A DNA stretch of 64,000 bases from IMG/VR virus record IMGVR_UViG_3300045988_126619, positions 64,001 through 128,000 of that record; one strand, 5' to 3'. How positions within the stretch are numbered: position 1 is the first letter of the stretch; each line of letters starts with the position of its first letter. The stretch is from a virus. Under the pieces are notes generated by a model. That model saw nothing but the letters and a program-made list of their open reading frames with translations, had not been told where the DNA came from and did not search any database. This document shows, piece by piece, positions 11,383 through 62,196 of the stretch. The translations under genes were made by a program, and so were the position numbers.

Positions 11383-11415
11383 AAAAAAATAACTAGCGTA
11401 TAGAACGTTAGTTAT
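11383..11415 (-). terminator. intrinsic terminator of the leftward micro-operon
   Basis: On the - strand: stem ATAACTA/TAGTTAT, 13-nt loop, T7 run. It overlaps the stop of 11412..11621(-). Confidence 0.6.
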
Positions 11416-11621: not shown

Positions 11622-11651
11622 ATCTTTACACCTCTTATTATTTATTTTATG

Positions 11652-11768
11652 CTATATAAATTTATAAGTATAAACTTGTTCCTTAATATCTTTAATACCT
11701 AGAATGAATGATAGTTGTTTTTTGTCTACCACCTTTTGAGTTCCATCTTTAAAAAATATCTTACACAT
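11652..11768 (-). CDS. 38-aa peptide MCKIFFKDGTQKVVDKKQLSFILGIKDIKEQVYTYKFI (not in the track)
   Basis: Carries the AAAGGTGGTAATA SD signature used by + strand early genes, and is preceded by an AAGATAAATGATA box on the - strand. Confidence 0.45.
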   Translation of the reverse strand: MCKIFFKDGTQKVVDKKQLSFILGIKDIKEQVYTYKFI

Positions 11769-11818
11769 AATTTTATTACCACCTTTACATTTTTTGTTAT
11801 CATTTATCTTATGTACTC

Positions 11819-11847
11819 ATTATATAATAAATTTTGGATATAGTCAA
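11819..11847 (-). promoter_or_regulatory. consensus leftward promoter
   Basis: On the - strand: TTGACT (11842-11847), 17-nt spacer, TATAAT (11819-11824). Confidence 0.65.
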
Positions 11848-11935
11848 CATTTTAAGTAATATTTTTATTAATTATTTTATGTTATATATTATATATAATG
11901 TAGAGAAAATTTTAATAATATTTTTACTTAAAATG

Positions 11936-11964
11936 TTGACATAAGATAAACAATAATATATAAT
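11936..11964 (+). promoter_or_regulatory. consensus rightward promoter
   Basis: -35 TTGACA 11936-11941, 17-nt spacer (taagataaacaataata), -10 TATAAT 11959-11964. Confidence 0.75.
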
Positions 11965-12009
11965 AGTAGTTGTAAAGGACAATAGAATAAATTTAAAGAG
12001 GTGCTGTAA

Positions 12010-37247: not shown

Positions 37248-37490
37248 ATGAAAAAATATGAATGTGTTAAAGCATTTTTAGTTCCATTATGTGATGATGA
37301 TGGTTTCATTATAGAGAATGAAGACAAATATATAGAAGAAGGTTCTATATGGAGTACACCAAAAGATGAAAATTATAGATTGATAGGAGCAGAAGTTAGA
37401 CTTGAAAAAAGTGATTGTGAACGGTTAGAATGGTTAGAAATAACTCAAGAAGATTTAGAAGACAAATTTAGATTGATAGAAGGTGTGTAA
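37248..37490 (+). CDS. hypothetical protein
   Basis: SD AAGGGGGA upstream. Confidence 0.55.
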   Translation: MKKYECVKAFLVPLCDDDGFIIENEDKYIEEGSIWSTPKDENYRLIGAEVRLEKSDCERLEWLEITQEDLEDKFRLIEGV

Positions 37491-37491
37491 A

Positions 37492-38925
37492 ATGATAGAT
37501 AAAGAATTAAATAAAAATATGGAAGTATTAAATATGTTGAGAAAAAGGATTATTATTTTGCCAGAAGTAAGGCTTATATTAGATAAACTTCACATAAATA
37601 ATCATAAGGCTTATATTGTGGGAGGTTATGTTAGAGATTCATTGTTAAAGAATCGTATGCCACATGATTGTGATATATGCACGTCTGCTACACCACAAGA
37701 AATTATGGATATATTTAAAAATTATAAAATAATTCCTACAGGTTTACAACATGGGACAGTAACTATTTGTATGAAATGGGGCGATTATGAAGTAACTACA
37801 TTTAGAAAAGATGGGGAATATTTAGATGGTAGACACCCACAAACAATTGATTTTGTTAATGATTTAAAAGAAGATTTGAGCAGAAGGGATTTTACGATTA
37901 ATGCGTTAGCTTATAATGAAGAAGAAGGATTAATTGATTATTTTGGAGGAAAGGAAGACCTTGAGAATAAAATCATAAGATGTGTAGGAGATGCTGAAAA
38001 AAGATTTAAAGAAGATGGATTGAGAATATTAAGAGCATACAGATTCTCTGCACAATTAGGATTTACTATAGAATATAATACAAGTAGTATATTAGCATAT
38101 AAAGGTGTAAAAACAAATATAGATAACGTATCAAGAGAAAGAATAAGAGAAGAATTAAACAAAATTATATTATCTGATAATTCAAGAGAAGTATTGCTTA
38201 ATATGGTTGATGATGGAATATGTAAAAGTATATTTGGGGATTTTACATTTGAAGATATGATGTTTTTTAATCAGAATAATCCTTATCACAATAGAACATT
38301 ACTCAATCATACACTAACTGCCATGACTATTGCTCCACCAATTTTAGAAGTTAGATTGGCATTATTATTTCATGATATAGGTAAATTACAAACACAAGCA
38401 ACTGATGATAAAGGCATTTCTCACTATTATAATCATTCAAAAGTATCAGCAGAATTAGCTTTAAAGTATTTAAAAGGATTAAAATATGATAATAAAACAA
38501 TAGATATGGTTGTTACATTGATTGCAAACCATGATTTTACATTTGATAATTATGATTATATAATTAAGAAACAATTGAAGAAGCTTCTTAATAAACATGG
38601 GGAAGAAATTGTTAAGAATTTAATAATAATTAGAAAATGTGATATATTAGCACAATCAGAAAAGTATTATTATGACCGATTAGAAAAAATTTATAAAGTT
38701 GAACGTTTACTAAATGATGTTTTAGAAGACCAAGAATGTTTTCAAATTAAAGATTTGGCTATAAACGGAAATGATTTAATTACAATAGGTTATGAGCAAG
38801 GTGTAGAACTTGGGAAAACTTTAAAATATATTGTAGACCTTGTTATAGAAGAACATTTGAATAATGACAAAGAAGAATTATTAGAATATGCAAAATTTTT
38901 ATTAAAAACACTTGACACAAAATAA
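37492..38925 (+). CDS. cca: CCA-adding tRNA nucleotidyltransferase with HD domain
   Basis: GGYVRDSLL, DCDICT, RRDFTINA, ERIREEL, then LLFHDIGK (HD). ATG 37492 follows SD GAAGGTG. Confidence 0.85.
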   Translation: MIDKELNKNMEVLNMLRKRIIILPEVRLILDKLHINNHKAYIVGGYVRDSLLKNRMPHDCDICTSATPQEIMDIFKNYKIIPTGLQHGTVTICMKWGDYEVTTFRKDGEYLDGRHPQTIDFVNDLKEDLSRRDFTINALAYNEEEGLIDYFGGKEDLENKIIRCVGDAEKRFKEDGLRILRAYRFSAQLGFTIEYNTSSILAYKGVKTNIDNVSRERIREELNKIILSDNSREVLLNMVDDGICKSIFGDFTFEDMMFFNQNNPYHNRTLLNHTLTAMTIAPPILEVRLALLFHDIGKLQTQATDDKGISHYYNHSKVSAELALKYLKGLKYDNKTIDMVVTLIANHDFTFDNYDYIIKKQLKKLLNKHGEEIVKNLIIIRKCDILAQSEKYYYDRLEKIYKVERLLNDVLEDQECFQIKDLAINGNDLITIGYEQGVELGKTLKYIVDLVIEEHLNNDKEELLEYAKFLLKTLDTK

Positions 38926-47354: not shown

Positions 47355-49538
47355 ATGAGAACATTAGTTTTACTTAGAGGAAGTGCAGGATGTGGCAAAT
47401 CAACATTTATTAAGGAGCATAAGTTAGAGGACTATACGTTGTCCTCTGACAGTTTTAGATTATTATATAGTTCACCTATATTAATGAATGATGGAACACA
47501 ATCAATTAGTGGAAAACATGAGAAAAAGACATGGGAAACATTATTTAATATCCTAGAATATAGAATGGAACAAGGGTTATTTACAGTAATAGATGCTACT
47601 AATAGTAAGGTTTCTGAAATTAACAAATATAAAAAACTTGCTGAATTTTATAGATATAATATTATTGTAGTAGATTTTACAGATTTGCCAAGAGAAGAAT
47701 GTAAGATTAGAAATGCAAATAGAGAACCTAGTTATAAAATAGTTCCAAATGTTGTAATAGATAAATTCTATGATAGATTTGATAAAAAGGAAAAGTTAAG
47801 TGGAGTAACAGTTATTAAACCACATGAATTTGAACAAGCTATAAGGATTACACCTATTAATGTATCTAACTATAATGATATTCAAATCATAGGAGATATT
47901 CATGGTTGTTATGATGCACTAATGACAATGTTAGAAGGTGGACAATTAAAAGAAGATAGATTATATATATTCACAGGAGATTTTTGTGATAGAGGTATCC
48001 AAAATGCAGAAGTGTTAGAATATTTATTCACTATTATGAACAATGATAATGTAATTTTATTAGAAGGAAACCATGAAAGAGCCTTATGGAGATATGCAAA
48101 TGATTTATATAGTCAACGAAGACAATTTGAAAAATATACAAAAGAAGAATTAATTAATAAAAATGTTTCTAAATCAAAAATTAGACATTTATATAGAAGA
48201 TTAAGGCAAATGGCTTTATTAAAGTTTGATGAAAAGACATTATTTATTTGTCATGGTGGTATTACTAATTTATCACAAGATTTACATTTGATTTCAGCAG
48301 AACAATTAATTTATGGTGTAGGTAATTATGAAGAAGTTGAAATTATTGATAATATATTTGAATTAAACACAAGTTCTACAACTTATCAGATACATGGACA
48401 TAGAAATGTTAATAGTAAACCTATTAATATAACACCAAGATGTTTCTGTTTAGAAGATAGAGTAGAATTTGGTGGGAATTTAAGAAGTGTAATATTTACA
48501 CACTCTATAATTAAAACTGTATCAGTAAAGAATGATACATATAAAGATTCAGAATACACAGAGGATAAAGATATTGTTATAGAGCCAAACATATTAGATA
48601 GATTAAGAAGTAGTGAATTAATTAGAGAAGTTAAGTTTGGTAATATTTCATCATTCAATTTTACAAGAAAAGCTTTTAATAATAAAGAATGGAATAATGA
48701 AACAATCAAAGCGAGAGGTTTATATGTAAATACTAATACAAAAGATATAGTTATAAGAAGTTATGATAAATTCTTTAATGTTAATGAAAGAGAAGAAACA
48801 CAATTACAGAACCTTTGTAAATCACTTTCTTATCCTGCTACAGCGTATGTTAAGTACAATGGATATCTTGGTCTAGTTGGTTATGATAACGAATCTGACA
48901 AGCTGTTAGTGGCTTCTAAATCACGATTGGATGGAGATTATGCAGACTGGATAAGAGAGATAATAAATACATGGGAAGATGATAAAATTCAATTCATGCA
49001 AGATTATGTTAAAAAGAACAAATGTACGCTAGTATTTGAAGTTATTGTTCCAGAACATGATACTCATATGATTAAGTATGATAAGTCTGAATTAGTGCTT
49101 TTATCCATTGTCAGAAATAATATTGAATTTGAACAGCTACCATATGAAGAAGTAATCGAACTTGGACACCGTTTAAATTTAAATTTTAAAGAGAAAGCAA
49201 TTGTTTTAAATAATAAGGAAGAGTTTTTGTCATGGTATAGAGAAGTTACACAAGAAGACTATATGTATAATGGTGAAGATATTGAAGGCTTTGTAATAGA
49301 GGATTCTAAAGGATTTATGACAAAAATTAAGTGTAGTTATTATACATTTTGGAAACATATGCGAGCATTAGTGGGAAGATATAAAAAACAAGGATATTAT
49401 ATGGATACTTCCAATTTAAATGATAGAGCATTATTATTCTTAGAATTTTTAAAGACATTACCAAAAGAACAATTGGAATATGATATCATTACATTAAGAG
49501 ATATGTTTTACAATTATGTTATTAATAAATTTTTTTAA
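47355..49538 (+). CDS. trifunctional polynucleotide kinase / metallophosphatase / RNA-ligase-like repair enzyme (bacterial Pnkp architecture)
   Basis: P-loop GSAGCGKST; GDIHGC, GDFCDRG, GNHE, HGH; ligase motifs KYNGYLG (I), EGFVIE (IV), TKIK (V). 727 aa. Confidence 0.75.
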   Translation: MRTLVLLRGSAGCGKSTFIKEHKLEDYTLSSDSFRLLYSSPILMNDGTQSISGKHEKKTWETLFNILEYRMEQGLFTVIDATNSKVSEINKYKKLAEFYRYNIIVVDFTDLPREECKIRNANREPSYKIVPNVVIDKFYDRFDKKEKLSGVTVIKPHEFEQAIRITPINVSNYNDIQIIGDIHGCYDALMTMLEGGQLKEDRLYIFTGDFCDRGIQNAEVLEYLFTIMNNDNVILLEGNHERALWRYANDLYSQRRQFEKYTKEELINKNVSKSKIRHLYRRLRQMALLKFDEKTLFICHGGITNLSQDLHLISAEQLIYGVGNYEEVEIIDNIFELNTSSTTYQIHGHRNVNSKPINITPRCFCLEDRVEFGGNLRSVIFTHSIIKTVSVKNDTYKDSEYTEDKDIVIEPNILDRLRSSELIREVKFGNISSFNFTRKAFNNKEWNNETIKARGLYVNTNTKDIVIRSYDKFFNVNEREETQLQNLCKSLSYPATAYVKYNGYLGLVGYDNESDKLLVASKSRLDGDYADWIREIINTWEDDKIQFMQDYVKKNKCTLVFEVIVPEHDTHMIKYDKSELVLLSIVRNNIEFEQLPYEEVIELGHRLNLNFKEKAIVLNNKEEFLSWYREVTQEDYMYNGEDIEGFVIEDSKGFMTKIKCSYYTFWKHMRALVGRYKKQGYYMDTSNLNDRALLFLEFLKTLPKEQLEYDIITLRDMFYNYVINKFF

Positions 49539-49599: not shown

Positions 49600-49779
49600 A
49601 TGATGAAAAAATTTAAAAAAGATAAGATTGTTTTAGAAGGTGGTTACGTTCCCACAAGATTTACAAATGTAGAAGGAAGTCTTCAAGAAATTAATAGGGG
49701 TTGTGGTATTCACAAATCTAAAAAAGCTTATAAAAGAAATCTAAAACACAGAAAGAAGGAATTAGAATATGATTTTTAA
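49600..49779 (+). CDS. 59-aa basic protein
   Basis: SD AAGGAAGG 8 nt before ATG 49600. The track start at 49561 lies inside the promoter box. Confidence 0.5.
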   Translation: MMKKFKKDKIVLEGGYVPTRFTNVEGSLQEINRGCGIHKSKKAYKRNLKHRKKELEYDF

Positions 49780-50431
49780 GAAAATTTGGCAAACAATTAA
49801 AAAGGTCTTATCATTCTTATCTCATAGAGTAGATAAATCAATTCCAGTAGAAGACCAATTAGAAATTATGAAAAAAGACCTACTACAAAAGAAACATGAT
49901 ATTGAAAATAATTCTAATCTTATGCAAATAAGAGGGATGAAACAACAATATGAGCAGGAACTCAAAGACCTAAGAAGAGAATTTGCAAATGCAAACTTTG
50001 ATAAAACTATTAAATTTTTAAAAGATAATAATGATACAGAACACGCATTAGAAACACTAAAGAAAAAGAAAAGACTAGAATCAAAAATAGAAGCAACTAA
50101 GGATAGACTTAAACAAGCAAAAGAAGCTGATAGAAATATCGTTAAGAAATTAAATCTATTAGATGCTAAGATTCAAGCTACAACAGATAAGATTGAAGAA
50201 TTAAAAGAAAGAAATCAATATGCAGAACAAACAAATGCTATTGCTGATTTAATGAACCAATTAAACGATATTGATACTGGTGTAGATGTTGATGGAATTT
50301 CAGATAGAATTAAATCTATTGAAAGAGAATCTAATGGAAGACTTGATGAATTTAATAGAAGAAGTTCTGGAGAAATTGCTAGACAAGAATCTTTAGATAA
50401 TGCTTTACTAGAAGAATTAAATAATTATTAA
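49769..50431 (+). CDS. PspA/IM30-family coiled-coil membrane-stress protein
   Basis: N-terminal amphipathic IWQTIKKVLSFL, then PVEDQLEIMKKDL, then a long heptad-rich region. 220 aa, the typical PspA size. Confidence 0.6.
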   Translation: MIFKKIWQTIKKVLSFLSHRVDKSIPVEDQLEIMKKDLLQKKHDIENNSNLMQIRGMKQQYEQELKDLRREFANANFDKTIKFLKDNNDTEHALETLKKKKRLESKIEATKDRLKQAKEADRNIVKKLNLLDAKIQATTDKIEELKERNQYAEQTNAIADLMNQLNDIDTGVDVDGISDRIKSIERESNGRLDEFNRRSSGEIARQESLDNALLEELNNY

Positions 50432-50456
50432 TTAAATAATATACGAAAAAATAATT

Positions 50457-50480
50457 GAGGTGTAAATCATTATACACCTC
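50457..50480 (+). other. perfect 8-bp hairpin after the pspA-like gene
   Basis: GAGGTGTA-N8-TACACCTC, with no T-run. It directly precedes the box at 50487-50499. Confidence 0.4.
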
Positions 50481-50517
50481 ACACATAAAATAAATGATAA
50501 AAAGGAGAATGAAAAGT

Positions 50518-50934
50518 ATGAGATATGAAGTAGATATGAAATTAAGTGGAAAAATAGATGGAAGTGAAATAGAACAATTATTAACAACAACTGTTGTTAG
50601 AACATTAGTTGGAGGTATGCTATTATTAAAAGATGAAGAATATATTGAAGAAAGAGGTCTAACAAAAAAAGATTTAGCTGAAATAAAAGACAAAATGGAA
50701 ACTGCTAAAAAAGATTACTTAGAATTATTAGGAAATTTAGATGGAGTTACACCAGTAGGTGATAAACAAGCTAGATTTATTAGTGTAAATATGACTAATC
50801 CAACAGATATTAATTCGGTGGCACTTGTAGTTTTAAAAGGAATTACTGTATCAAATGAAGAAGAATTATTAAAGTTTGCAGGAGCAAAGTTAATAGAAGA
50901 AGATGATATAATTTATGCTGAAACAGTATTATAG
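50518..50934 (+). CDS. acidic 138-aa protein, TerD-partner paralog 1
   Basis: MRYEVDMKLSG.. and ..EEELLKFAGAKLIEEDD align with MKYKVDERLSG.. and ..DEELLKFVSAKIMIDNED of 53038..53460. Confidence 0.6.
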   Translation: MRYEVDMKLSGKIDGSEIEQLLTTTVVRTLVGGMLLLKDEEYIEERGLTKKDLAEIKDKMETAKKDYLELLGNLDGVTPVGDKQARFISVNMTNPTDINSVALVVLKGITVSNEEELLKFAGAKLIEEDDIIYAETVL

Positions 50935-50946
50935 GGGGTAGTTTAT

Positions 50947-51501
50947 ATGGCAGTAACATTACAAAAAAGACAGGGAATATCATTATCAAAAGGTTTCTCT
51001 AAATTAAGATTTACAGTAAATTGGGAGTATAAAGATGCAGATGTAGACATTGAAGCAATTGTTGTAGATGATGGTATTGCTTTAATTGATGAAGACCTAG
51101 TTTTTTATGGCAATTTAAGACATCCAAGTAAATCAGTTAGACATTTAGGAGATATAAGAAATGGTGGTGGTTCTGATGGTGGAACTGAAACTATATCAAT
51201 AGATTTAACTAAACTACCTAATGATAGAAATGAAATTATTCTAACAGCTTCAATAGATGGAGCAGAATCAAACGGAAATAATTTTGGTAATATAGGTAAA
51301 GTTAGATGTGAATTAATTGATGATACAAATAGTAAATTATTAGCAACATATGATGTTGATGTTGATTTAGATATGGAAATTGCAGGAGTGTTATGTAGAA
51401 TATATAGAAAAGAAGATAATCAATTTGGATATGAAACAGTTGGGCAAGCTTATCCAAGCTTAGAAAGTATGGTAACACATTACGGAATAGTGGTGGCATA
51501 A
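50947..51501 (+). CDS. terD: TerD-domain stress protein
   Basis: MAVTLQKRQGISL.., DVDIEAIVV, DLVFYGN, HLGDIRNGGGSDGGTETISIDL (Ca-binding GD..G..D/E loop). 184 aa. Confidence 0.8.
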   Translation: MAVTLQKRQGISLSKGFSKLRFTVNWEYKDADVDIEAIVVDDGIALIDEDLVFYGNLRHPSKSVRHLGDIRNGGGSDGGTETISIDLTKLPNDRNEIILTASIDGAESNGNNFGNIGKVRCELIDDTNSKLLATYDVDVDLDMEIAGVLCRIYRKEDNQFGYETVGQAYPSLESMVTHYGIVVA

Positions 51502-51509
51502 AATAAACG

Positions 51510-51545
51510 ACAGCAGGACTTATTATATAGGTTCTGCTGTATTTA
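51510..51545 (+). terminator. terminator-like hairpin
   Basis: 10-bp stem ACAGCAGGAC/GTTCTGCTGT (one G-U), 11-nt loop, ATTT. Confidence 0.45.
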
Positions 51546-51564
51546 AAAACGAGGAGAGAGAACT

Positions 51565-51900
51565 ATGAAGAATAAAGAAATTATTAAATTAGATGAAAAT
51601 AGATGGGTATTATGGTCATATACAGAAGGAGTTATTTTGACTTGTGATTCAGAAGGAGATTTATTAGAGTATTTAGAAGATTGTAAATGTGTAGATTTAG
51701 ATGTAAAGGAATTTTTAGTTAATAGTAAAATATATGGAGCAAAATTAGAATGTATTGAAGAACTTATGACATATTCTGATAATGAAGATGATTGGGATAT
51801 ATTCTATAATTGGAAGAAAGAAGTGTTATGTTCTGTAGAAGATTTTGATGATTATTGCAGAGCAATAGACAATAAATTAAATGAATTATTAGAGAGGTAA
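51565..51900 (+). CDS. acidic hypothetical protein
   Basis: SD GAGGAGAG upstream. Confidence 0.55.
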   Translation: MKNKEIIKLDENRWVLWSYTEGVILTCDSEGDLLEYLEDCKCVDLDVKEFLVNSKIYGAKLECIEELMTYSDNEDDWDIFYNWKKEVLCSVEDFDDYCRAIDNKLNELLER

Positions 51901-51904
51901 TTAA

Positions 51905-52324
51905 ATGAGTTATGAAGTAACTGTAAGAGAAAGCACAATAAAAATTAAAAAAGAACTTGTTAAACAAGCTTTGGAAGATATTTGCAATCACCAAAAACAA
52001 CATGGAACATTTCAATATTGCTATTTTTTTAATATTGAAGATATAAATTTTAATAATTATGGAATAGATGATAATACATGGAGTGCAATAGATATATTTC
52101 ATGATTGTCTAGGGTTGGTCTGTAAATATGAAGATGATTGTTTATTTATAAAAAGATTAAGATATGACGGTTTAGCAGAAGAATTAGATATATTTAATGT
52201 CATAGCACCATATTGTTATGATGGGGGATATATGGAGTTTTGTGGAGAAGACGGAGAACTATTTAGATACACAATAAAAGATGAATCATGTATAGAACAA
52301 AGTCCTAAAATAGTTTGGGAATAA
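51905..52324 (+). CDS. hypothetical protein
   Basis: SD AGAGAGG upstream. Confidence 0.55.
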   Translation: MSYEVTVRESTIKIKKELVKQALEDICNHQKQHGTFQYCYFFNIEDINFNNYGIDDNTWSAIDIFHDCLGLVCKYEDDCLFIKRLRYDGLAEELDIFNVIAPYCYDGGYMEFCGEDGELFRYTIKDESCIEQSPKIVWE

Positions 52325-52348
52325 ATAAAAAAATATTTTAAAAAAGTA

Positions 52349-52377
52349 TTGACATAAAATAAATGATATGATATACT
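52349..52377 (+). promoter_or_regulatory. sigma-A-type promoter with box
   Basis: -35 TTGACA 52349-52354, 17-nt spacer, -10 TATACT 52372-52377. The leader has a TTGTAGT/ACTACAA hairpin. Confidence 0.6.
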
Positions 52378-52430
52378 AATATTGTAGTCAAGGGAACTAC
52401 AAAATAATAAATAGAAAGAGGGATAAATAA

Positions 52431-52985
52431 ATGGCAATTCAATTATCAAAGAACAAAGGAATTAATTTAAAGAAAGGCTTGGACAAAGTAAGATTTGTTG
52501 TAAGATGGGATTCTAAAGAAGATGTAGATATCCAAGCATTAGTTTTAAAAGACGGACAATCAAGTGCTGATGAAGATTTAGTATTCTACAATCAACCAAC
52601 ACATCCTACAGGAGCAGTAAAACATTCTGGAGATGTAAGAGATGGTTCAAAAGTAGATGGTGATGATGAATATATTGATATTACATTATCTGCTTTACAT
52701 CCACAAAAGAATCAAGTATTATTAACTGCTTCAATAGATAATGCAGTAGAAAAAGGTGTTGATTTTGGAAGTATTGGAAAAGTTACTTGTGAACTTATAA
52801 ATGCTAGTAACAATGAAGTTTTAGCAACATATCAAGTTGATAAAGACTTAGACATGGAAGCTTGTGGAGTTCTTTGTGAATTAAAGAAGAGTGATAATGG
52901 AAGTTGGGATTATAAAGCTGTAGGTCAAGCTTATATGGACTTAGGAGATATGTTAACATCATATGGATTCAATATAGCAGATTAA
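52431..52985 (+). CDS. terD: TerD-domain stress protein
   Basis: MAIQLSKNKGINL.., DVDIQALVL, DLVFYNQ, HSGDVRDGSKVDGDDEYIDITL. 184 aa. Clear paralog of 50947..51501. Confidence 0.8.
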   Translation: MAIQLSKNKGINLKKGLDKVRFVVRWDSKEDVDIQALVLKDGQSSADEDLVFYNQPTHPTGAVKHSGDVRDGSKVDGDDEYIDITLSALHPQKNQVLLTASIDNAVEKGVDFGSIGKVTCELINASNNEVLATYQVDKDLDMEACGVLCELKKSDNGSWDYKAVGQAYMDLGDMLTSYGFNIAD

Positions 52986-53037
52986 TATTAATAAAACATA
53001 AAATAAATGATAATAAATAAAAAGGAGAGATTTGAAT

Positions 53038-53460
53038 ATGAAATATAAAGTAGATGAAAGATTAAGTGGAACAGTAAGATTAGAAATTGGAGAAAGAATG
53101 TTTGTAGAAGATGTTTGTAAAACAATTATTGGTGGAAAAGCATTATTGGAAGATGAAGATTATATTAAAGAGCATAATGTATCAGAAGAAGATTTAAATG
53201 ATGTAGCACAACAAATAGCAGAAGCTGAAAAAGCTTATTTAGCATTATTAAATGATGTAGCAGGAACAACTGATGAAAATGAAGAAGATGCTAAAGAAGT
53301 ACAAAGTATGATTAGAATGTTAGCTTTTGATTCAGAAGGAGAATTAGGACTTTTAGTATTAGAAGGAACTAGAGCAACTAATGATGAAGAATTATTAAAA
53401 TTTGTAAGTGCAAAAATAATGATAGATAATGAAGATATGTATGTTGAAATTGATGAATAA
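53038..53460 (+). CDS. acidic 140-aa protein, TerD-partner paralog 2
   Basis: SD AAAGGAGAG 8 nt before ATG 53038. Paralog of 50518..50934. Confidence 0.6.
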   Translation: MKYKVDERLSGTVRLEIGERMFVEDVCKTIIGGKALLEDEDYIKEHNVSEEDLNDVAQQIAEAEKAYLALLNDVAGTTDENEEDAKEVQSMIRMLAFDSEGELGLLVLEGTRATNDEELLKFVSAKIMIDNEDMYVEIDE

Positions 53461-53476
53461 AAGGAGAGATTGAATA

Positions 53477-54133
53477 ATGGCAGTATCATTACAAAAAAGA
53501 CAAGGAATATCATTAAAGAAAGATAACGGAACAAAATTAACAAAAATCACATTAGGTTTATCTTGGTGTGAAAAGAAGAAAGGAAGGACTGTAACAGAAA
53601 CAGTTCCAAAGAAGGGATTCTTTAATAGATTAATTGGAGCAGTTGAAGAAGTTACAAGAACAATTCCAGTAAATACTAAAGATGTTGATTTAGATACAGC
53701 AGTTCTTGCATATAAAAGAAATGATTATAAAGGTATATGTTACTTTGGTGATAAAGATATGTATATAAGAAATAATCATATTATACACCACTATGGGGAT
53801 GCACTTAGTAGCAATACAAAGTTTACAGAAAAAGATAACGAACAAATAGATATATACTTAGATAAGATTGACACAAACATAATGGATACATTCTATCTTG
53901 TAATGAATATATTCACAAGTGGTATTGACTTTGGAGATATTGAAAATGCTAGAGTTACAGTTTATGATGAAAAAGGTAATAGCATAGCAACATATAATCC
54001 AGTAGATGATTACAGAGGTAATAATGGAATTATAGTTGGTAAAGTTTATCACAATGGTTCTGAATGGAAATTTGAAGCGATTGGTGATGGAAAGAATGTA
54101 TCAAGATTAATCGATTTTAAAAGATATTTATAA
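53477..54133 (+). CDS. divergent TerD-fold protein with an inserted segment
   Basis: MAVSLQKRQGISL.. N-terminus as in the other two. DVDLDTAVL, YGDALSSNTKFTEKDNEQIDIYL. ~35-aa insertion after the first strand. Confidence 0.6.
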   Translation: MAVSLQKRQGISLKKDNGTKLTKITLGLSWCEKKKGRTVTETVPKKGFFNRLIGAVEEVTRTIPVNTKDVDLDTAVLAYKRNDYKGICYFGDKDMYIRNNHIIHHYGDALSSNTKFTEKDNEQIDIYLDKIDTNIMDTFYLVMNIFTSGIDFGDIENARVTVYDEKGNSIATYNPVDDYRGNNGIIVGKVYHNGSEWKFEAIGDGKNVSRLIDFKRYL

Positions 54134-54149
54134 TAATAACATAAAATAA

Positions 54150-54180
54150 ATGATAAGGGATAATAACAATCCTTTATCAT
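54150..54180 (+). other. 12-bp hairpin that sequesters the ATGATA end of a box copy
   Basis: ATGATAAGGGAT-N7-ATCCTTTATCAT (one G-U). Confidence 0.45.
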
Positions 54181-54214
54181 TTAAATAAATTAATTATAAG
54201 GAGAGATAAATAAT

Positions 54215-56833
54215 ATGAAAATTAATAAAGAAGGTTTAAGTAACCAAGAAGTAGAACAAAGTAGAGAAAAATATGGAGCGAATAGACTTCCCGAAAAAGT
54301 ATATCCTACAATATGGGAAAGAATAACAAATGTTTTTAAAGAAGATGGAATAATGACAATGTTATTTGTTTTAGCAATATTGGAAGGAATTGAAGCACTA
54401 GTATGTAGAGAGATACCTTGGGAATGTATAGGAATCATGACTACAGTTAGTGTAGTAACATTTTTTACTATTAATTCAGATTTGAAACAAGAAAAATCAT
54501 TTAAAGATTTGAAAGCATCTATACAAGAGCCTACAGTTACTGTAATAAGAGAAGGAAGAAAACAGATAATTAAACAATCAGACTTAGTAGTTGGTGATAT
54601 TTGTTTACTTAATAATGGAGAAAAAGCTTATGCTGATGGATTGATAATTGAACAAACCGATTTTAAAATTTCAAATGCAGAACTTAATGGTGAATCAGAT
54701 GAAGTAGAAGTTGATACATTTAATTATGTGGAAAATTCAGAAGTTGAATTTACAGATGATGTTTCAAAACAAGAAGGATTTATTAATAGTGGAGCATTAA
54801 TTGTTAATGGTAAAGCTACTATGGGAGTTGTAAGAGTTGGAGAAAACACAGAAAGTGGTAAAGCTTTAGTAAATGTTACTGAAATGAAAACGCCTTTGCT
54901 TGAAAAACTTGATACTTTAACAGAACAAATCACAAGATATGGTGCAGTTGGTGCAACATTAATGTTCGCTATCAATTTTGGAGTGATTGTTTTATTAAAA
55001 GGTGGATTATCATACTTCACAAGTACAGCAGTTCTTAGTATAGGATTAGATATAGTTGCTTGTTTAATGGTTGCATTATCAATATTTAGTGCATCTGCCC
55101 CAGAAGGTCTTCCATTTGTTATTAACTTAGTTCTTTCAGCAAATGTTAACAAGATGAAAAAACACAACGTTTTATTAAAAAATGTTAAAAAAGGTGAAAC
55201 AAGTGGTTCTTTATCAATCTTATTTAGTGACAAAACAGGAACAATGACAAAGAATATAATGTCAATAGTTGAATTTACAGATGGAACAGGAAAAACACTT
55301 AATCGTGGCGAAATTGAAAATTCAAAATACAAAGAATTAATAGATAGAAGTATTGTAATGAGTTCAGATTCATATTATGACGAGAATGGAGATTTAATTG
55401 GTGGTAATGGTACTGATAGAGCATTTAGTAAGTTTGTTGGAGCAGATTTATTTAAACAATATTCAAATAGTACAGTAATTAAATCACAACCATTCAATTC
55501 TAAGAATAAGTATAACGCAGTTCAATTAGATGGATACACTATATATAAAGGTGCAGGAGAAATATTAGTAAACAATTCTAAAAACTTAATAAATACTGAT
55601 TGTTGGGTAAGAGGAATTGAAGAAGAAGATAGAGAAAATCTACAATCTACAATGGATAGAATGATGAATAAGGCTGAAAGAGTTTTAGCTATCGCAATTT
55701 CTAAACAACCATTAGTTGACAATGAACTTCCAAGCGACTTAACATTATTAGCGGTATTTGGTATTAGAGATGAAATAAGAGAAAGTACACCAACAGCTAT
55801 TGAAAATTTAAATAATGCAGGTGTTCAAGTTGTAATGGTAACAGGAGATAATATTAAAACTGCTGATGCTATTGCAAAAGAAATCGGATTATTAAAAGAT
55901 GGAGATTTAAGTTTTACAAATGATATATTAATGGATATGACCGATGAAGAAATCGCTTCAATATTACCTAAATTAAAAGTAGTTGGTAGAGCGAAACCAG
56001 ATACTAAACGTAGATTAAATCATATCGCTCAAAATAACGGTTATGTTACAGGAATGTGCGGAGATGGAGTTAATGATGCTCCTGCCTTAATGCAAGCTGA
56101 TATTGGATTTGCTATGGGTTCTGGAACAGATGTTGCAAAAGATGCAGGTGACGTAGTTATCTTAGATAATAACTTAGCATCAATTGAATATGGTGTTAAG
56201 AGTGGTAGACAAATATTTAAGAATATTCAAAAGTTCTTAAAGTATCAATTAGCAATTAATGTTGGTATTGTTATAACTCCTATTTTAGCTTCATTATGTG
56301 GTGTAACTAAATCATTAGCAGTAACAAGTATTCTATGGATTAATGCAATAATGGATACATTAGCATCACTTGCATTTAGTGGTGAACCTTGTGAAGATAG
56401 TGTGATGAAAGAAAAACCTATCTCAAGAACAGCTAACATAATTAATAAAGACATGATGATTCAAATAGCAACAACTGGTTTATACTTTATAGGAACTGGA
56501 TTATTTATGCTAACAAGTGATGTAATGGGTAATTTATTTGGTGAAAAACAAACAACAGCTTATTTCTCATTATTTGTAATGATAGCGATATTCAATGGTT
56601 TTAATGTAAGAACAGCATCAATTAATTGTTTAAAAGACATTAAAAAGAATCCAAGATTTATTAAGATTATGGCTTTAATTACAGTATTACAAGTGTTATT
56701 AGTAAGTTTTGGTGGTAAAATATTTGATGTTATGCCAATGAACCTTATGGAATGGTTAATTGTAACAGGTATTGCAGTATTAATTATCCCAATAGATTTA
56801 ATTAGAAAAATGATTATGAATAAAACAAAATAA
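54215..56833 (+). CDS. P2-type cation-transporting ATPase, Ca2+-pump-like
   Basis: NGESDEV (TGES variant), APEGLP in TM4, DKTGTMT, KGAGE, MVTGDN, GDGVNDAPAL. 872 aa with ~10 TM segments. Confidence 0.8.
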   Translation: MKINKEGLSNQEVEQSREKYGANRLPEKVYPTIWERITNVFKEDGIMTMLFVLAILEGIEALVCREIPWECIGIMTTVSVVTFFTINSDLKQEKSFKDLKASIQEPTVTVIREGRKQIIKQSDLVVGDICLLNNGEKAYADGLIIEQTDFKISNAELNGESDEVEVDTFNYVENSEVEFTDDVSKQEGFINSGALIVNGKATMGVVRVGENTESGKALVNVTEMKTPLLEKLDTLTEQITRYGAVGATLMFAINFGVIVLLKGGLSYFTSTAVLSIGLDIVACLMVALSIFSASAPEGLPFVINLVLSANVNKMKKHNVLLKNVKKGETSGSLSILFSDKTGTMTKNIMSIVEFTDGTGKTLNRGEIENSKYKELIDRSIVMSSDSYYDENGDLIGGNGTDRAFSKFVGADLFKQYSNSTVIKSQPFNSKNKYNAVQLDGYTIYKGAGEILVNNSKNLINTDCWVRGIEEEDRENLQSTMDRMMNKAERVLAIAISKQPLVDNELPSDLTLLAVFGIRDEIRESTPTAIENLNNAGVQVVMVTGDNIKTADAIAKEIGLLKDGDLSFTNDILMDMTDEEIASILPKLKVVGRAKPDTKRRLNHIAQNNGYVTGMCGDGVNDAPALMQADIGFAMGSGTDVAKDAGDVVILDNNLASIEYGVKSGRQIFKNIQKFLKYQLAINVGIVITPILASLCGVTKSLAVTSILWINAIMDTLASLAFSGEPCEDSVMKEKPISRTANIINKDMMIQIATTGLYFIGTGLFMLTSDVMGNLFGEKQTTAYFSLFVMIAIFNGFNVRTASINCLKDIKKNPRFIKIMALITVLQVLLVSFGGKIFDVMPMNLMEWLIVTGIAVLIIPIDLIRKMIMNKTK

Positions 56834-57352: not shown

Positions 57353-57381
57353 TTGACATAAAATAAATGATAATGTATAAT
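57353..57381 (+). promoter_or_regulatory. consensus promoter with box
   Basis: -35 TTGACA 57353-57358, 17-nt spacer, -10 TATAAT 57376-57381. Confidence 0.8.
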
Positions 57382-57414: not shown

Positions 57415-57843
57415 ATGAGAGCAAAATTTAGTTTAAATGGAAATACTATTGAAAATGAACAAATAGAAAATGTTTCATTATTAATAATATTGGGTTCAAA
57501 ATTTAAAGATGAATATTGTTACGATAATGAAGAATATGTTATAGATTTATTAAAACAAAAATGCAAAATATTTAATGTAGATAGTTTTGAAGTAGAATGT
57601 CCTTGTGAAGATTTGATTTATTTATCTAATGAATCATTTACTGGAGAGGGTGAAGAAGGTGTTTATCCAAATAACAAAAAAGAATTACAAATATTAATAG
57701 ATTCATATAATGAAGCAAAAAAAGTATTTGGTTCAGATAAAGTTAGAATATCAGTATATAGTAATTATTTATATGAAAATGTAAATGAGGACGATTTCTC
57801 ATTAGAAGAATTTTTAAGTAATTTTGAATTAATAGAAGATTAA
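57415..57843 (+). CDS. acidic hypothetical protein
   Basis: SD AAGGAGAG upstream. Confidence 0.55.
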   Translation: MRAKFSLNGNTIENEQIENVSLLIILGSKFKDEYCYDNEEYVIDLLKQKCKIFNVDSFEVECPCEDLIYLSNESFTGEGEEGVYPNNKKELQILIDSYNEAKKVFGSDKVRISVYSNYLYENVNEDDFSLEEFLSNFELIED

Positions 57844-57866: not shown

Positions 57867-58412
57867 ATGAAAAAAATATTAGTAGTAATTGATATGCAAA
57901 ATGATTTTATAACAGGAAGTTTAGGAACAAAGGAAGCACAAGAAATTGTTCCAAAAGTAATTGATAAGATTAAAGAATATGATAAATATGAAAACAGTCT
58001 TATATATGCAACACAAGATACTCATTATATAGGTTATTTAAAAACTCTTGAAGGATTAAAATTACCAATAGAACATTGTATAAAAGATACAGAAGGATGG
58101 GAAATACAAAAAGATATATTAAAAGAATTAAAAGAAAGAAAAGCTTGTATATCAGAGAAAATAACATTTGGAGATATAAATTTAGCAGAGAATTTTTCTG
58201 GATTAAATTGTGTTAATCATGATGTTGAAATAGAATTAATTGGGTTATGCACAGATATATGTGTTATATCTAACGCATTAACAATTAAAGCTTACGTTCC
58301 AGAAGTAAAAATTATAGTAGATGCAAGTTGTTGTGCAGGTGTAACACCACAAAGTCATAAAAATGCACTAGAAGCTATGAAGATGTGTCAAGTAGAAATT
58401 ATTAATGAATAG
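57867..58412 (+). CDS. pncA: nicotinamidase / isochorismatase-family hydrolase
   Basis: ILVVIDMQNDFITGSLG, catalytic-Cys block LIGLCTDICV. 181 aa. Confidence 0.7.
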   Translation: MKKILVVIDMQNDFITGSLGTKEAQEIVPKVIDKIKEYDKYENSLIYATQDTHYIGYLKTLEGLKLPIEHCIKDTEGWEIQKDILKELKERKACISEKITFGDINLAENFSGLNCVNHDVEIELIGLCTDICVISNALTIKAYVPEVKIIVDASCCAGVTPQSHKNALEAMKMCQVEIINE

Positions 58413-58426
58413 GAGATGTATAGATT

Positions 58427-59251
58427 ATGGTAAAAGTAAATGGAGAAGAACACAATTATTATTTATTCCCTAATAATGAATTAAAGGTATCACCTATTAG
58501 ATATGGTAATTATGTTGAAATTAAAGATGGCGATGATATAGAAGTAGAATTAATATATGAAAATTCAATAGACCTTGTTCACCTTATATTTGTAAAGAAA
58601 TTTTTAGATGAAGCCTATCCACATAGTTGTGTAGATTTAGTTATGAAATATATTCCATACTCAAGAATGGACAGGGAAACACCTTTTCAAATGTTTACTT
58701 GTAAATATTTATGTCAATTAATAAATGATTTATGTTTTAGTTCTGTAACAGTATTAGACCCTCATTCAAATGTATGTGTGGGAGCATTAGAACGTGTTAA
58801 GCAAATAGATTTATCATATTATGTTAAACAAGTATTAGACTACGAAAGAGTGAAAGAAGGAACTTATATAGATGCTATATTCCTTCCAGACGTAGGTGCA
58901 TATAAAAAGTATACAGAAGTATTGGATAATGTAAAGTTACCTAAATTTTGGGGGAATAAACATCGTGACTTAAACAATGGAGCAATAACTGATTATGATA
59001 TAATTGGAGATATTGATGTTAATGGTAAAAATATACTTATAGTTGATGATATATGCGTTAAGGGATTTACCACATTATTTGCCTCAAAGAAATTAAAAGA
59101 ACTAGGAGCAAATAAAGTCATTTTCTATTGTTCTCATTGTGAAGATGCTATTCATAGTGGACAATTATTAAAAACAGATTATGTAGATAGAATATATACA
59201 ACTGATAGCATGAAATTTGATGAACATAATAAAATAATTAAATTATATTAG
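58427..59251 (+). CDS. ribose-phosphate pyrophosphokinase (Prs) homolog; candidate ADPR-pyrophosphate synthetase (Adps-like)
   Basis: YIPYSRMDR (YxRQDR-like), VLDPHS (DLH-like), ILIVDDICVKGFT (PRPP loop). 274 aa, shorter than housekeeping Prs. Confidence 0.6.
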   Translation: MVKVNGEEHNYYLFPNNELKVSPIRYGNYVEIKDGDDIEVELIYENSIDLVHLIFVKKFLDEAYPHSCVDLVMKYIPYSRMDRETPFQMFTCKYLCQLINDLCFSSVTVLDPHSNVCVGALERVKQIDLSYYVKQVLDYERVKEGTYIDAIFLPDVGAYKKYTEVLDNVKLPKFWGNKHRDLNNGAITDYDIIGDIDVNGKNILIVDDICVKGFTTLFASKKLKELGANKVIFYCSHCEDAIHSGQLLKTDYVDRIYTTDSMKFDEHNKIIKLY

Positions 59252-59275
59252 GAGAAAGTATTATATCAAAATATG

Positions 59276-59304
59276 TTGACATAAAATAAATGATAGTATA
59301 TAAT
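59276..59304 (+). promoter_or_regulatory. consensus promoter with box
   Basis: -35 TTGACA 59276-59281, 17-nt spacer, -10 TATAAT 59299-59304. The leader has a hairpin GTAGAGAGCAG..CTGCTCCTAC. Confidence 0.8.
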
Positions 59305-59370
59305 AAATAATGTAGAGAGCAGTTAGTAAATCTGCTCCTACAATATAAATAAATGAAAGAGAGTGATTAT

Positions 59371-60843
59371 ATGAAAACAAACCCAATGTTATTGATTGAT
59401 TTTTATAAGGCTTGTCATAGTGATATGTTACCAAAAGGAATAACTAAATCAGTCAGTTATTTTACACCTAGAATGAAAAGAGTTGAAAGATGGGACAATG
59501 TAGTTATGTTCGGTCTACAAGGATTTATTAAAACTTATTTAATTGATTATTTTAACGAAAATTTCTTTAATCAAACAACAGAAAAGGCAGTATTTGAATA
59601 TGAAAGAGTTCTTAAATATTCTTTAGGGGAAGATTCTTTTAGTAGTGAAAAAGTAAGAAAACTTCATAAATTAGGTTATTTACCAATTGAAATTTTAGCA
59701 ATTAAAGAAGGAACAAAAGTACCTATAAAGATACCTATGTTTGCAATAACAAATACTCATGATGATTTTGCATGGCTACCACAAGCCTTAGAATCACTTA
59801 TATCTGCTGAAATGTGGCATCCTATGATATCAGCTACAGTTGGAGCAACTTATAGAGATATAGTAAATAAATATTATGATATTTCATGTGATGATGATAT
59901 TCCAAGAGCAAAAGCATTAGGAGATTTTAGCTTTAGAGGACAAGAATGTTTACAATCAGCAATTAAGAGTTCAGCAGGTTGGTCACTATCATTCTTAAAT
60001 TCAGCTACAGTTCCTGCTATACCATATTTAGAAGATAATTATAATTGTAATTGCATAACAGAACCAGTTTTATTTGGGGCAGTTTCTACAGAACATTCTG
60101 TGATGTGTTCTAATTATTCTGTAGATGGGGATGAAGAAACATTAATCAGAAGATTATTAACTGAATTATATCCAAATGCTTCATTTAGTGCTGTTTTAGA
60201 TTCTTATGATTATTGGAGAATTGTTAAAGAAGTTCTTCCTAAATTAAAAGAAGAAATACTTAACCACAATGGATGTTTCTTAATAAGGGGAGATAGTGGG
60301 GATTGTGTAGAAGTTGTTACACAAACTGTATTTGAGTTATGGAAGACATTTGGAGGAACTGTTAATAGTAAAGGCTATAAAGTATTAGACCCACACGTAA
60401 AAGCTATTTATGGTGATTCTATAACAGTTCAAAGATGTGAAGAAATATATAAGATACTTATAGAAAATGGATTTGCTTGTTCAAATGTAGCACTTGGTGT
60501 TGGCTCATTCTCAATGCAAGCAATTGAAGAAGATGGAATACTTAAACCATTTACTAGAGATACTTATGGAATGGCTATTAAAGCTACTTACATGGAAATA
60601 AATGGTGAATCATATCCAATATTTAAGAATCCAAAGGATGGAGGATTTAAGAAATCGCAAAAAGGCTGTTGTAGTGTATTCTTTGATGAAGATGGGGAAA
60701 TGGTTTATGCAGATGGATTAACTTGGGAAGAAGCTTGTGGTGATGAAGAAAACTTATTACAACCAGTATTTAAAGATGGTCAGTTAGTTAGGGAACAATC
60801 ATTACAAGAAATAAGAAATATATTACATGAAGGAGGATTTTAA
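59371..60843 (+). CDS. nicotinamide phosphoribosyltransferase (NAMPT/NadV) family; candidate Namat-like enzyme
   Basis: NPMLLIDFYKACH N-terminus typical of NAMPT. 490 aa. ATG 59371 follows SD AGAGAGTG. Confidence 0.7.
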   Translation: MKTNPMLLIDFYKACHSDMLPKGITKSVSYFTPRMKRVERWDNVVMFGLQGFIKTYLIDYFNENFFNQTTEKAVFEYERVLKYSLGEDSFSSEKVRKLHKLGYLPIEILAIKEGTKVPIKIPMFAITNTHDDFAWLPQALESLISAEMWHPMISATVGATYRDIVNKYYDISCDDDIPRAKALGDFSFRGQECLQSAIKSSAGWSLSFLNSATVPAIPYLEDNYNCNCITEPVLFGAVSTEHSVMCSNYSVDGDEETLIRRLLTELYPNASFSAVLDSYDYWRIVKEVLPKLKEEILNHNGCFLIRGDSGDCVEVVTQTVFELWKTFGGTVNSKGYKVLDPHVKAIYGDSITVQRCEEIYKILIENGFACSNVALGVGSFSMQAIEEDGILKPFTRDTYGMAIKATYMEINGESYPIFKNPKDGGFKKSQKGCCSVFFDEDGEMVYADGLTWEEACGDEENLLQPVFKDGQLVREQSLQEIRNILHEGGF

Positions 60844-60846
60844 AAT

Positions 60847-61149
60847 ATGAAATTAGGTCTTATTTATGATTATTTTGGAACTGTTAAGTTTGGTTCTATT
60901 GAAGTAGAAGAAAAACCAAAGACATATAAAACAATAGGTGGGGAATCAGTACCTAGAGTATATAGAAGTGTTATAAATAAAGATATGATTAATAAAGTGT
61001 ATGATGATGTTGTTCTTATATATGATTGTTCTAAAGAAGAAGCTATTAAAATATGGAATGAACATTTTGATAGAAAAATTAATACTAAAAAAGAATATTT
61101 TGAGAAAGAAGTAGAACGTTTAGAAGGTTTAATTATAAAGGAGGAATAA
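60847..61149 (+). CDS. hypothetical protein embedded in the NAD module
   Basis: SD AAGGAGGA upstream. Confidence 0.55.
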   Translation: MKLGLIYDYFGTVKFGSIEVEEKPKTYKTIGGESVPRVYRSVINKDMINKVYDDVVLIYDCSKEEAIKIWNEHFDRKINTKKEYFEKEVERLEGLIIKEE

Positions 61150-61150
61150 T

Positions 61151-61888
61151 ATGTATAAATTTGATGCAAAGGAAACAGCAAGACAATTAATAGAATGGAT
61201 AAAAGAATATTTTGAAAATAATGGGGATAAAAATACTAAAGCTATCATTGGTATTTCTGGTGGAAAAGATAGTTCTATAGTAGCAGGATTATGTGTTGAA
61301 GCACTAGGTAAGGATAGAGTAATTGGTGTAAAGATGCCACAAGGAGAACAAGAAGATATAGAATATGCAGAGGATATTATTGATTTCTTAGGCATAAAAT
61401 CATATGAAATAAATATTGAGGATTCAGTTTTTGGAGTATATAGAGAATTAGATTTTGAGAAAATACCTAGAAACTCAATAGTAAATTCCAATACACCTGC
61501 AAGAATAAGAATGACTGTATTATATGCAGTTAGTGGAGCATTGGGTGGTAGAGTAGCAAATACATGTAATCTATCAGAAGATTATGTCGGTTATGCTACA
61601 AAGTTTGGTGATGGAGCAGGAGATTTTTCACCATTATCTAATTTAACTGTAACAGAGGTTAAAGCTATTGGAAGAGAAATAGGTATTCCAGATTATTTAA
61701 TAGATAAGACACCTATAGATGGACTTTGTGGACTATCAGATGAAGATAATTTAGGTTTTTCTTATGATACTTTAGATAAGTATATTAGAACTGGTATATG
61801 TGAAGATGAAGAAACTAAGAGAAGAATAGATGCTATGCACAAAAATAATTTGCATAAGTTATTACCTATGCCATCATTTAAATTATAA
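61151..61888 (+). CDS. nadE: NH3-dependent NAD+ synthetase
   Basis: PP-loop GISGGKDSS, and C-terminal DEDNLGFSYDTLD typical of NadE. 245 aa. Confidence 0.8.
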   Translation: MYKFDAKETARQLIEWIKEYFENNGDKNTKAIIGISGGKDSSIVAGLCVEALGKDRVIGVKMPQGEQEDIEYAEDIIDFLGIKSYEINIEDSVFGVYRELDFEKIPRNSIVNSNTPARIRMTVLYAVSGALGGRVANTCNLSEDYVGYATKFGDGAGDFSPLSNLTVTEVKAIGREIGIPDYLIDKTPIDGLCGLSDEDNLGFSYDTLDKYIRTGICEDEETKRRIDAMHKNNLHKLLPMPSFKL

Positions 61889-61903: not shown

Positions 61904-62176
61904 ATGATAAATAAATATAGAAAGAAACCAATAACAATAGAAGCAATACAATTTACTAGAGATAATATAGATGAAATATATGATTTTAGCAGAGGAAAAG
62001 TATTTAATTTCGTAATTCCAAAAACTTTTGATAGAACAGCTACCTGTTGTATTGAAACATTAGAAGGAATAATGAAAGCACAAGAAGGAGATTATATAAT
62101 AAAAGGGGTAGAAGATGAAATATATTCTTGTGAAAAAAATATTTTTGAAAAAACATATGAAAAGGTATTGACATAA
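61904..62176 (+). CDS. small conserved phage protein (KKP-I-x-A-x-Q .. EG .. GDYII-G .. Y-C type)
   Basis: YRKKPITIEAIQF .. TLEGIMKAQEGDYIIKGVEDEIYSCEKNIFEKTYE. The family is recalled from other phages and its function is unknown. Confidence 0.5.
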   Translation: MINKYRKKPITIEAIQFTRDNIDEIYDFSRGKVFNFVIPKTFDRTATCCIETLEGIMKAQEGDYIIKGVEDEIYSCEKNIFEKTYEKVLT

Positions 62177-62196
62177 AATAAACGATATGATATACT
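62168..62196 (+). promoter_or_regulatory. sigma-A-type promoter overlapping a gene end
   Basis: -35 TTGACA 62168-62173, 17-nt spacer (taaaataaacgatatga), -10 TATACT 62191-62196. Confidence 0.6.

Follow-up and report, generated by a model that had tools for sequence, protein, structure and literature searches.

Positions 64,001 to 128,000 of the IMG/VR virus record IMGVR_UViG_3300045988_126619—64,000 nucleotides (nt), referred to here as the window—carry four genes of nicotinamide adenine dinucleotide (NAD+) metabolism between 57867 and 61888: pncA for a nicotinamidase, adps for a homolog of phosphoribosyl pyrophosphate (PRPP) synthetases (PRPS or Prs), namat for a transferase of the nicotinamide phosphoribosyltransferase (NAMPT) kind, and nadE for an NAD+ synthetase. 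The middle two belong, judged by scores and key residues, to the families of Adps and Namat, the enzyme pair of NAD+ reconstitution pathway 1 (NARP1). On balance, we favour reading the module as a deamidated variant of NARP1, one linear four-step route that would rebuild NAD+ through nicotinate. This reading is carried by the family memberships, the active-site residues, a switch between two states in the pocket of the transferase, and the near-perfect association of one of these states with PncA and NadE. The substrates and products assigned to the second and third steps are predicted from them, as is a role in helping a gut-clostridial phage to withstand the loss of NAD+.

The proposed route

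NAD+ depletion is among the commonest antiphage strategies, and NARP1, NARP2 and NARP3 are the known viral answers to it. In the route proposed here, PncA would convert the nicotinamide released by NADases to nicotinate and ammonia, and Adps would pyrophosphorylate ADP-ribose (ADPR) to ADPR pyrophosphate (ADPR-PP). A Namat-family enzyme without the amide-binding Asp would then join nicotinate to ADPR-PP, giving nicotinic acid adenine dinucleotide (NaAD), which an ammonia-dependent NadE would turn into NAD+, possibly with the ammonia from PncA. Both products of NADase defences would be recycled by such a linear route, and PncB and NadD could be absent because Adps and the variant transferase stand in for them.

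An earlier note on this DNA had described two competing branches, with PncA consuming the nicotinamide that the NAMPT-like enzyme needs. A single linear pathway would resolve that paradox, the amide-binding Asp being replaced in the transferase; it is this replacement, taken together with the association with PncA and NadE, that points to one pathway through nicotinate.

The transferase and its pocket

The namat-like open reading frame (ORF) encodes 496 amino acids (aa) from its first ATG at 59353 and 490 aa from the ATG at 59371; the latter is the likely start, because a 98%-identical relative (P0001) is 490 aa long. The protein shares 46% identity with SpβL1 Namat; its score against the structure sequence 9w5w/9w5x is 414 bits, compared with 165 bits for the true Nampt of Xanthomonas (Xcc) and 148 bits for the human enzyme. 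Its catalytic core is kept (H245, R306, D308, F189, R192, D13 and Y15). In the pocket, SpβL1 D215 is replaced by Ala218 and A242 by Ser245, and further pocket residues are G190 and N216 (numbering from 59353).

Structures of SpβL1 Namat show Asp215 hydrogen-bonded to nicotinamide and Ala242 in the same pocket, and the D215A variant makes 8.1-fold less NAD+ (PMC12774641). The equivalent residue of human NAMPT, Asp219, determines which substrate is used: affinity shifts to another substrate in the D219S variant, and D219A loses activity (PMC4919578 Table 2; PMC7096376). The earlier note had the NAMPT-like enzyme using nicotinamide, a claim not supported by the replacement of the amide-binding Asp or by the way this replacement tracks PncA and NadE across the family, as described below. 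The reaction we predict is nicotinate + ADPR-PP to NaAD.

The clamp of the enzyme is retained in part: the clamp loop keeps its stacking Arg (R40 in SpβL1) at the same length (PRMKRVERWD), and the clamp helix, GSFSMQA-IEEDGILKP-FTRD, keeps Phe at position 3 and the TRD end (T398-R399-D400). An AlphaFold2 single-sequence model was unusable (mean pLDDT 32.8), and a profile comparison with E. coli PncB for the equivalent of D215 aligned only residues 245–394, at 7% probability. Many Namat/Nampt homologs are 800–1100 aa long and match the query in two to four stretches (e.g., P0124, P0145 and P0181), with frequent break points near query residues 240–260 and 323, which suggests that they hold inteins or other large insertions.

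Two pocket classes and their gene context

HMMER, run exhaustively against 1.8 billion cluster representatives, yielded 150 diverse relatives (50%-identity clusters). Gene context was taken from 148 viral loci, 80 genome loci and metagenome contigs—about 240 related loci in all—scanned with hidden Markov models (HMMs) built from homologs. At SpβL1 positions 215 and 242, 91 of the 150 representatives have D/A (the D-type), and 51 combine A, S or V with S (the A/S-type), so that the A/S class makes up about one third of these nearest clusters. Mixed states occur in a handful of representatives, mostly long proteins with insertions in which the alignment near the site looks unreliable.

The two classes keep different company. 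Neither PncA nor NadE lies within 8 kb in any of the 38 D-type viral loci (37 D/A and one E/A), 36 of which have Adps; PncA, Adps and NadE all lie within that distance in 105 of the 112 A/S- or S/S-type viral loci, the rest being partial and mostly on short contigs. The genome loci are all A/S-type (80/80), and 65 have the full set. Among 70%-identity clusters flanked on each side by 3 kb or more, PncA and NadE accompany 10 of 10 A/S-types versus 0 of 21 D-types. The PncA and NadE extension is thus unusual, as the earlier note had it: D-type NARP1 loci never carry it.

Other positions change along with the pair. Next best at telling the classes apart are columns H187, G213, S239 and I240. At H187, 99% of D-types have His, where A/S-types have Ser, Gly or Cys; at G213, Gly is found in 99% of D-types and Lys or Asn in A/S-types; and S239 is Ser in the D class and Gly in the A/S class. 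By our mapping, which goes by offset, SpβL1 H187, G213, D215 and A242 match H191, G217, D219 and A244 of the nicotinamide/FK866 pocket of human NAMPT; S239, like H187 and G213, is among the positions lining the pyridine pocket.

The association extends to distant relatives. Seven remote A/S representatives were examined: in four (P0144, P0142, P0251 and P0210) the gene is flanked by PncA, Adps and NadE, and P0247 has them in yet another order; P0177 is a short contig with NadE and Adps and no PncA, and the P0249 contig ends right after the gene and has a NadD-like gene nearby. Most of the seven keep the canonical 11-residue clamp helix. The D-types nearest the A/S class, P0220 and P0152, have the Prs-like gene and Namat only. 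The Namat of phage Phass-1, 33–36% identical to that of the window and without the clamp insertion seen there, shares its pocket and lies in a module with an identical order of five genes. At least five gene orders keep the four genes together. When the defining columns are removed, a neighbour-joining tree gathers the D-types in one clade and places the A/S-types opposite them, in one large and several small groups. Four human-faecal phage contigs considered as further examples (MT835946, MT836475, MT836279 and MT835800) were set aside, having NadE and no nearby Namat.

The Adps-like enzyme

The Adps-like protein (274 aa) aligns end to end with SpβL1 Adps (272 aa), at 33% identity over the full length and 130 bits; it scores 75 bits against ICP1 Adps and 43 bits against the best PRPS in the PDB. 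SpβL1 and ICP1 Adps, both experimentally verified, score only 96 bits against each other, so the protein in the window lies inside the divergence of verified Adps enzymes. These scores point to Adps rather than to a housekeeping Prs and, together with the 414 bits of the transferase to Namat 9w5w, support the earlier assignment of the Prs-like and NAMPT-like pair to the NARP1 families. All curated NCBIfam Prs cut-offs exceed its scores, and it lacks the C-terminal regulatory helices of canonical PRPS (median lengths in related loci are 279–282 aa).

The acceptor and catalytic residues of ICP1 Adps are known (PMC13586617), and all seven compared here—F18, R87, H121, D161, K185, D212 and D213—are kept; position F92 is variable across the family. 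The PP loop reads DDICVKGFTT in the window, compared with DDICDGAASF in ICP1 and DDLSSFGGTF in SpβL1. The Namat homolog lies 100 nt downstream of the adps-like gene, and such a neighbour is found in 97% of the Adps clade. We predict the reaction ADPR + ATP to ADPR-PP + AMP. No class-specific change separates the Adps of D loci from that of A/S loci, which is what a switch of the base alone would predict. Namat evolves more slowly than Adps, and the module is partly mosaic.

PncA and NadE

The best PDB match of PncA is the nicotinamidase of P. horikoshii (1ILW); in the alignment to it, the triad D9/K98/C131 and the metal site D51/H53/H70 are all kept. The protein scores 39 against the E. coli-type equivalog NF008623, below the cut-off of 174. 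Its predicted reaction is nicotinamide to nicotinate + NH3. PncA is only 67% identical between the window and its 98% relative L238, in which Adps, Namat and NadE are 96–98% identical; this indicates a recent replacement of the single gene inside the module.

NadE is a single full-length domain with no glutaminase and scores 179.8 bits against TIGR00552 (cut-off 63.65). Its best PDB match is 2E18, of the archaeal short NadE type (4e-38). The predicted reaction is NaAD + ATP + NH3 to NAD+.

The scan for other NAD genes covered all ORFs of at least 150 aa, and some shorter ones, within these 64 kb of a larger genome. Neither a CTP_transf_like domain nor a second NAPRTase-family protein was seen among them, in agreement with the earlier note that NMNAT, pncB and nadD are absent; PnuC and NadR domains were likewise not found.

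Weighing the alternatives

Several points weigh against the linear route through nicotinate. Nicotinate use and the NaAD product are predictions from sequence. NadE is a bacterial housekeeping gene, and the clustering could reflect a mere grouping of NAD genes. Deamidation followed by re-amidation costs one extra ATP, for an advantage that is unexplained; two possibilities are a rapid deamidation of nicotinamide by the hosts, or that NADases act less well on NaAD. The Fisher test on the 70%-identity clusters (p = 2e-8) is uncorrected for phylogeny, and the switch from D to A/S probably happened once or twice, long ago, which makes the association a property of a deep clade; because the A/S class is one side of the tree, it does not represent many independent events. 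There are also exceptions: L203 has neither PncA nor NadE, and L024 and the Ruminococcus albus loci have no NadE nearby. In favour of a function, the set is kept down to about 36% identity, through the shuffling of gene order, and in phages as well as bacteria. Further points of this kind favour particular rivals and are weighed with them.

An unlikely reading, though the likeliest of the rivals, is that the module is a Preiss–Handler look-alike running on PRPP: the Prs-like enzyme would make PRPP, PncA would supply nicotinate, the transferase would be a nicotinate phosphoribosyltransferase making nicotinate mononucleotide (NaMN), and host NadD followed by phage NadE would complete the route, ADPR not being directly recycled. 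The gene content is indeed that of Preiss–Handler minus NadD, and Namat retains PRPP activity in vitro (PMC12774641). Two of the points that count against the linear route belong here. The clamp helix in the lineage of the window has a conserved 9-residue insertion and no aromatic at motif position 7, for which reason a preference for ADPR-PP is less certain here than in A/S lineages with a canonical clamp; and in one bacterial A/S locus (L232) a NadD-like (CTP_transf_like) gene adjoins Adps-Namat. However, several A/S lineages retain both the canonical adenine clamp, GSYTYQYVTRD, and R40, and NadD was unseen in the window and, with that one exception, in six other A/S loci with listed genes and Pfam matches. 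The Prs-like protein itself also argues against the PRPP route: it falls under all curated Prs cut-offs, has the distance, residues and PP-loop type of verified Adps, and is kept by the transferase in essentially all A/S loci, though hosts own a Prs.

We consider it improbable that the module combines ordinary NARP1 on nicotinamide with an independent PncA/NadE boost of the Preiss–Handler salvage of the host, which is the two-branch picture. The pair does lie in the NARP1 families, an internal promoter divides the two halves in the window, and hosts of this clade generally have PncB and NadD; but the promoter split is absent from most relatives, and a nicotinamide-dependent Namat would be starved by PncA. 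Moreover, the replacement of the nicotinamide-binding Asp is a change that cripples nicotinamide use in SpβL1 Namat and human NAMPT, and it is accompanied, where PncA and NadE are present, by changes at three or four further positions of the pocket. Most improbable of all is a route through nicotinamide mononucleotide (NMN), in which the transferase makes NaMN, or the NadE substrate is something other than NaAD, and NadE converts NaMN to NMN for a host NMN adenylyltransferase. Its support, which again counts against the linear route, is that the second-best solved relative of NadE (3FIU, 3e-31) is the Francisella enzyme, an NMN synthetase (PMC3376133). The best relative, however, is the archaeal short NadE 2E18, and in that subfamily the M. 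jannaschii enzyme is a genuine NAD synthetase, lacking NMN synthetase activity (PMC3376133); no NMNAT was found in the window or the related modules, and Adps would be left without a role.

Chromosomal copies in gut Clostridia

The module occurs in bacterial chromosomes as well. In R. albus 8 it lies amid sugar-metabolism and housekeeping genes; in Pseudoruminococcus massiliensis, PncA-Adps-Namat is followed by a 656-aa glutamine-dependent NadE and then by an NrtR-type (Nudix + winged-helix) regulator. These contexts rule out a phage-only system, and the module is, judging from its genes, also a chromosomal NAD-salvage operon of gut Clostridia. Phage and bacterial Namat copies are 73–76% identical.

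NrtR-type regulators were located at L162:11422-12312 (P. massiliensis) and at L231:128-958 (a metagenome contig); in the latter, the NrtR-like gene is upstream of the module and a chemoreceptor gene downstream. The regulators suggest that the chromosomal module is regulated by an NAD-related metabolite.

Module layout and transcription signals

The four-enzyme module that the earlier note described is present as five ORFs, head to tail on the + strand: pncA (57867–58412, 181 aa; Isochorismatase PF00857, E 1.4e-19), adps (58427–59251, 274 aa; PHROG 619 at 6e-62), namat (59371–60843, 490 aa; NAMPT_N and NAPRTase domains), orf100 (60847–61149) and an NH3-type nadE (61151–61888, 245 aa; NAD_synthase PF02540, 1.1e-53). 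Upstream of pncA and adps, a promoter-like site TTGACA-17-TATAAT at 57353–57381 (+), with a 12/12 match to the sigma-70 type, precedes orf142 (57415–57843, +), an ORF of unknown function and no family match that probably heads the upstream transcription unit; homologs of orf142 were found in none of the related loci except L238. Downstream of nadE lies orf90 (61904–62176, +; PHROG 419), outside the conserved module and probably the last gene of the unit, and the next near-consensus promoter is at 62168–62196.

A second sigma-70-type promoter, TTGACA-17-TATAAT at 59276–59304 (+), again matching at 12/12 positions, lies between adps and namat. It is followed at the predicted 5' end of the namat transcript by a stem-loop at 59311–59342 (+; −15.5 kcal/mol, z = −4.2), as stable in 0 of 200 shuffles and with no U tail on the + strand, which makes a 5' stabiliser of the transcript possible. 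The density of promoter-like sites in the region overall is not above chance, and the function we assign to these sites is putative. The promoter and hairpin that the earlier note placed between the Prs-like and NAMPT-like genes are therefore present, and the split into separate units is a feature of this lineage only: in about 130 of 190 related loci, Adps directly adjoins or overlaps Namat and no promoter lies between them. For the same reason we rejected a separation of branches in time by the internal promoter, which the earlier note had offered, as a general explanation. No Rfam family, the NAD+ riboswitch included, was found in the window or in the module leaders.

The slot between namat and nadE is variable. 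The 100-aa ORF that the earlier note pointed out there in the window, orf100, is of unknown function. It matches no family in Pfam, NCBIfam or PHROG and does not resemble the ORF that Phass-1 has in this slot, and among related loci it is found only in L238; it was accordingly dropped as a conserved part of the module. Elsewhere the slot is empty or holds a Macro domain (53 loci), Tpt1/KptA (seven loci), NADAR (five loci), a histidine phosphatase (one locus) or unknown ORFs; examples are L051:9476-9988, L136:9933-10469, L233:9675-10499, L213:2965-3528 and L002:6367-6990. Several of these families act on ADPR derivatives—Tpt1/KptA is an RNA 2'-phosphotransferase—and the slot genes may feed other ADPR-derived breakdown products into the pathway.

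The phage setting

The window has a G+C content of 25%, with almost all long ORFs on the + strand. It is probably part of a large phage, given its phage-type genes (Pnkp/RNA-ligase, CCA-adding enzyme, helicases, integrase-like genes and a GIY-YIG nuclease) and its closest relatives, which are IMG/VR viral contigs of 115–245 kb. Because orf90 (PHROG 419, unknown function) shares about 69% DNA identity with hypothetical genes of Clostridium perfringens phages, the host is probably a Clostridium-like gut bacterium of low G+C content.

Other features of the window are observations in their own right. Directly 5' of the NAD module, 49769–56833 holds a PspA/IM30-like gene, three TerD-domain genes and an 872-aa P-type cation (Ca2+-type) ATPase, a membrane-stress and ion-handling cluster that is unusual in a phage; its order is identical in L238. 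Around 9200–12000, some 3 kb have no ORF of at least 110 aa and the AT skew is locally reversed; tandem units of about 60 and 120 nt at 10161–10400, with more copies to about 10640, each contain a TTGACA-like box, and the region may be a promoter array or another non-coding control region. A 433-aa DndB-like ORF (24690–25991) sits between two tyrosine-integrase-like ORFs (23361–24335 and 26006–26983). The window also has a tool kit for tRNA repair, a CCA-adding enzyme and a 727-aa Pnkp-type kinase/phosphatase/RNA-ligase (37483–38925 and 47355–49538), although ARAGORN found no tRNA genes across the 64 kb.

Relation to known systems

NARP1 (Adps and Namat of SpβL1, Bas63, FADO and ICP1; Osterman et al., bioRxiv 10.1101/2024.02.11.579819) shares with the module an adjacent pair of the same two families, the Adps residues, the Namat core, R40 and T398-R399-D400, and a first step and overall purpose predicted to be the same. 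The module differs from it in the changes at D215 (to Ala), A242 (to Ser), H187 and G213, in the 9-residue clamp insertion of the window, in the almost constant presence of PncA and NadE in A/S modules, which canonical loci never have, and in a predicted product that is NaAD rather than NAD+. With the Preiss–Handler pathway (PncA, PncB, NadD and NadE) it has in common the first and last steps, deamidated intermediates and, in a bacterial copy, the link to NrtR; however, PncB and NadD were unseen, and the ADPR moiety is predicted to be reused in place of PRPP and ATP.

A chromosomal Adps-Namat pair that is active has been described from Paenibacillus foliorum; its transferase, pfNamat, shares 72% identity with that of SpβL1 and was assayed with nicotinamide (PMC12774641). 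In contrast, the chromosomal copies of gut Clostridia belong to the pocket-switched class and come with PncA, with or without NadE. NARP2 (Nampt and Nmnat, KVP40) and NARP3 (PnuC and NadR-like, Bas30) likewise restore NAD+ in phages under NADase defence, but the ORFs scanned in the window include no Nmnat, PnuC or NadR, the transferase groups with Namat, and Adps is present.

Full-text searches found the PncA-Adps-Namat-NadE arrangement undescribed within the library searched, and the original NARP1, Namat/Adps structure, NARP3 and Phass-1 genome papers do not mention a PncA/NadE arrangement. We see about an even chance that the pocket-switched Namat is a nicotinate ADP-ribose transferase which, with PncA, Adps and NadE, makes up a fourth NAD+ reconstitution pathway, 'deamido-NARP1'.

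Implications

If NARP1 does have a deamidated form, the transferase would have a new enzyme activity—nicotinate + ADPR-PP to NaAD + PPi, a reaction that is undescribed—and it would be explained why a diverse 'NAMPT-like' class in gut phages and Clostridia travels with PncA and NadE. The two states at SpβL1 positions 215 and 242, D/A versus A/S-S, would serve as an annotation rule and would correct the labelling of every Adps-Namat pair as nicotinamide-using NARP1. Deamido-NARP1 would then be widespread among large gut and rumen phages, and Lachnospiraceae and Ruminococcus would have an NrtR-linked chromosomal operon that recycles ADPR and bypasses PncB and NadD. Such an operon would amount to an unrecognised ADPR salvage in abundant gut bacteria, with a bearing on the niacin and nicotinamide metabolism of the gut.

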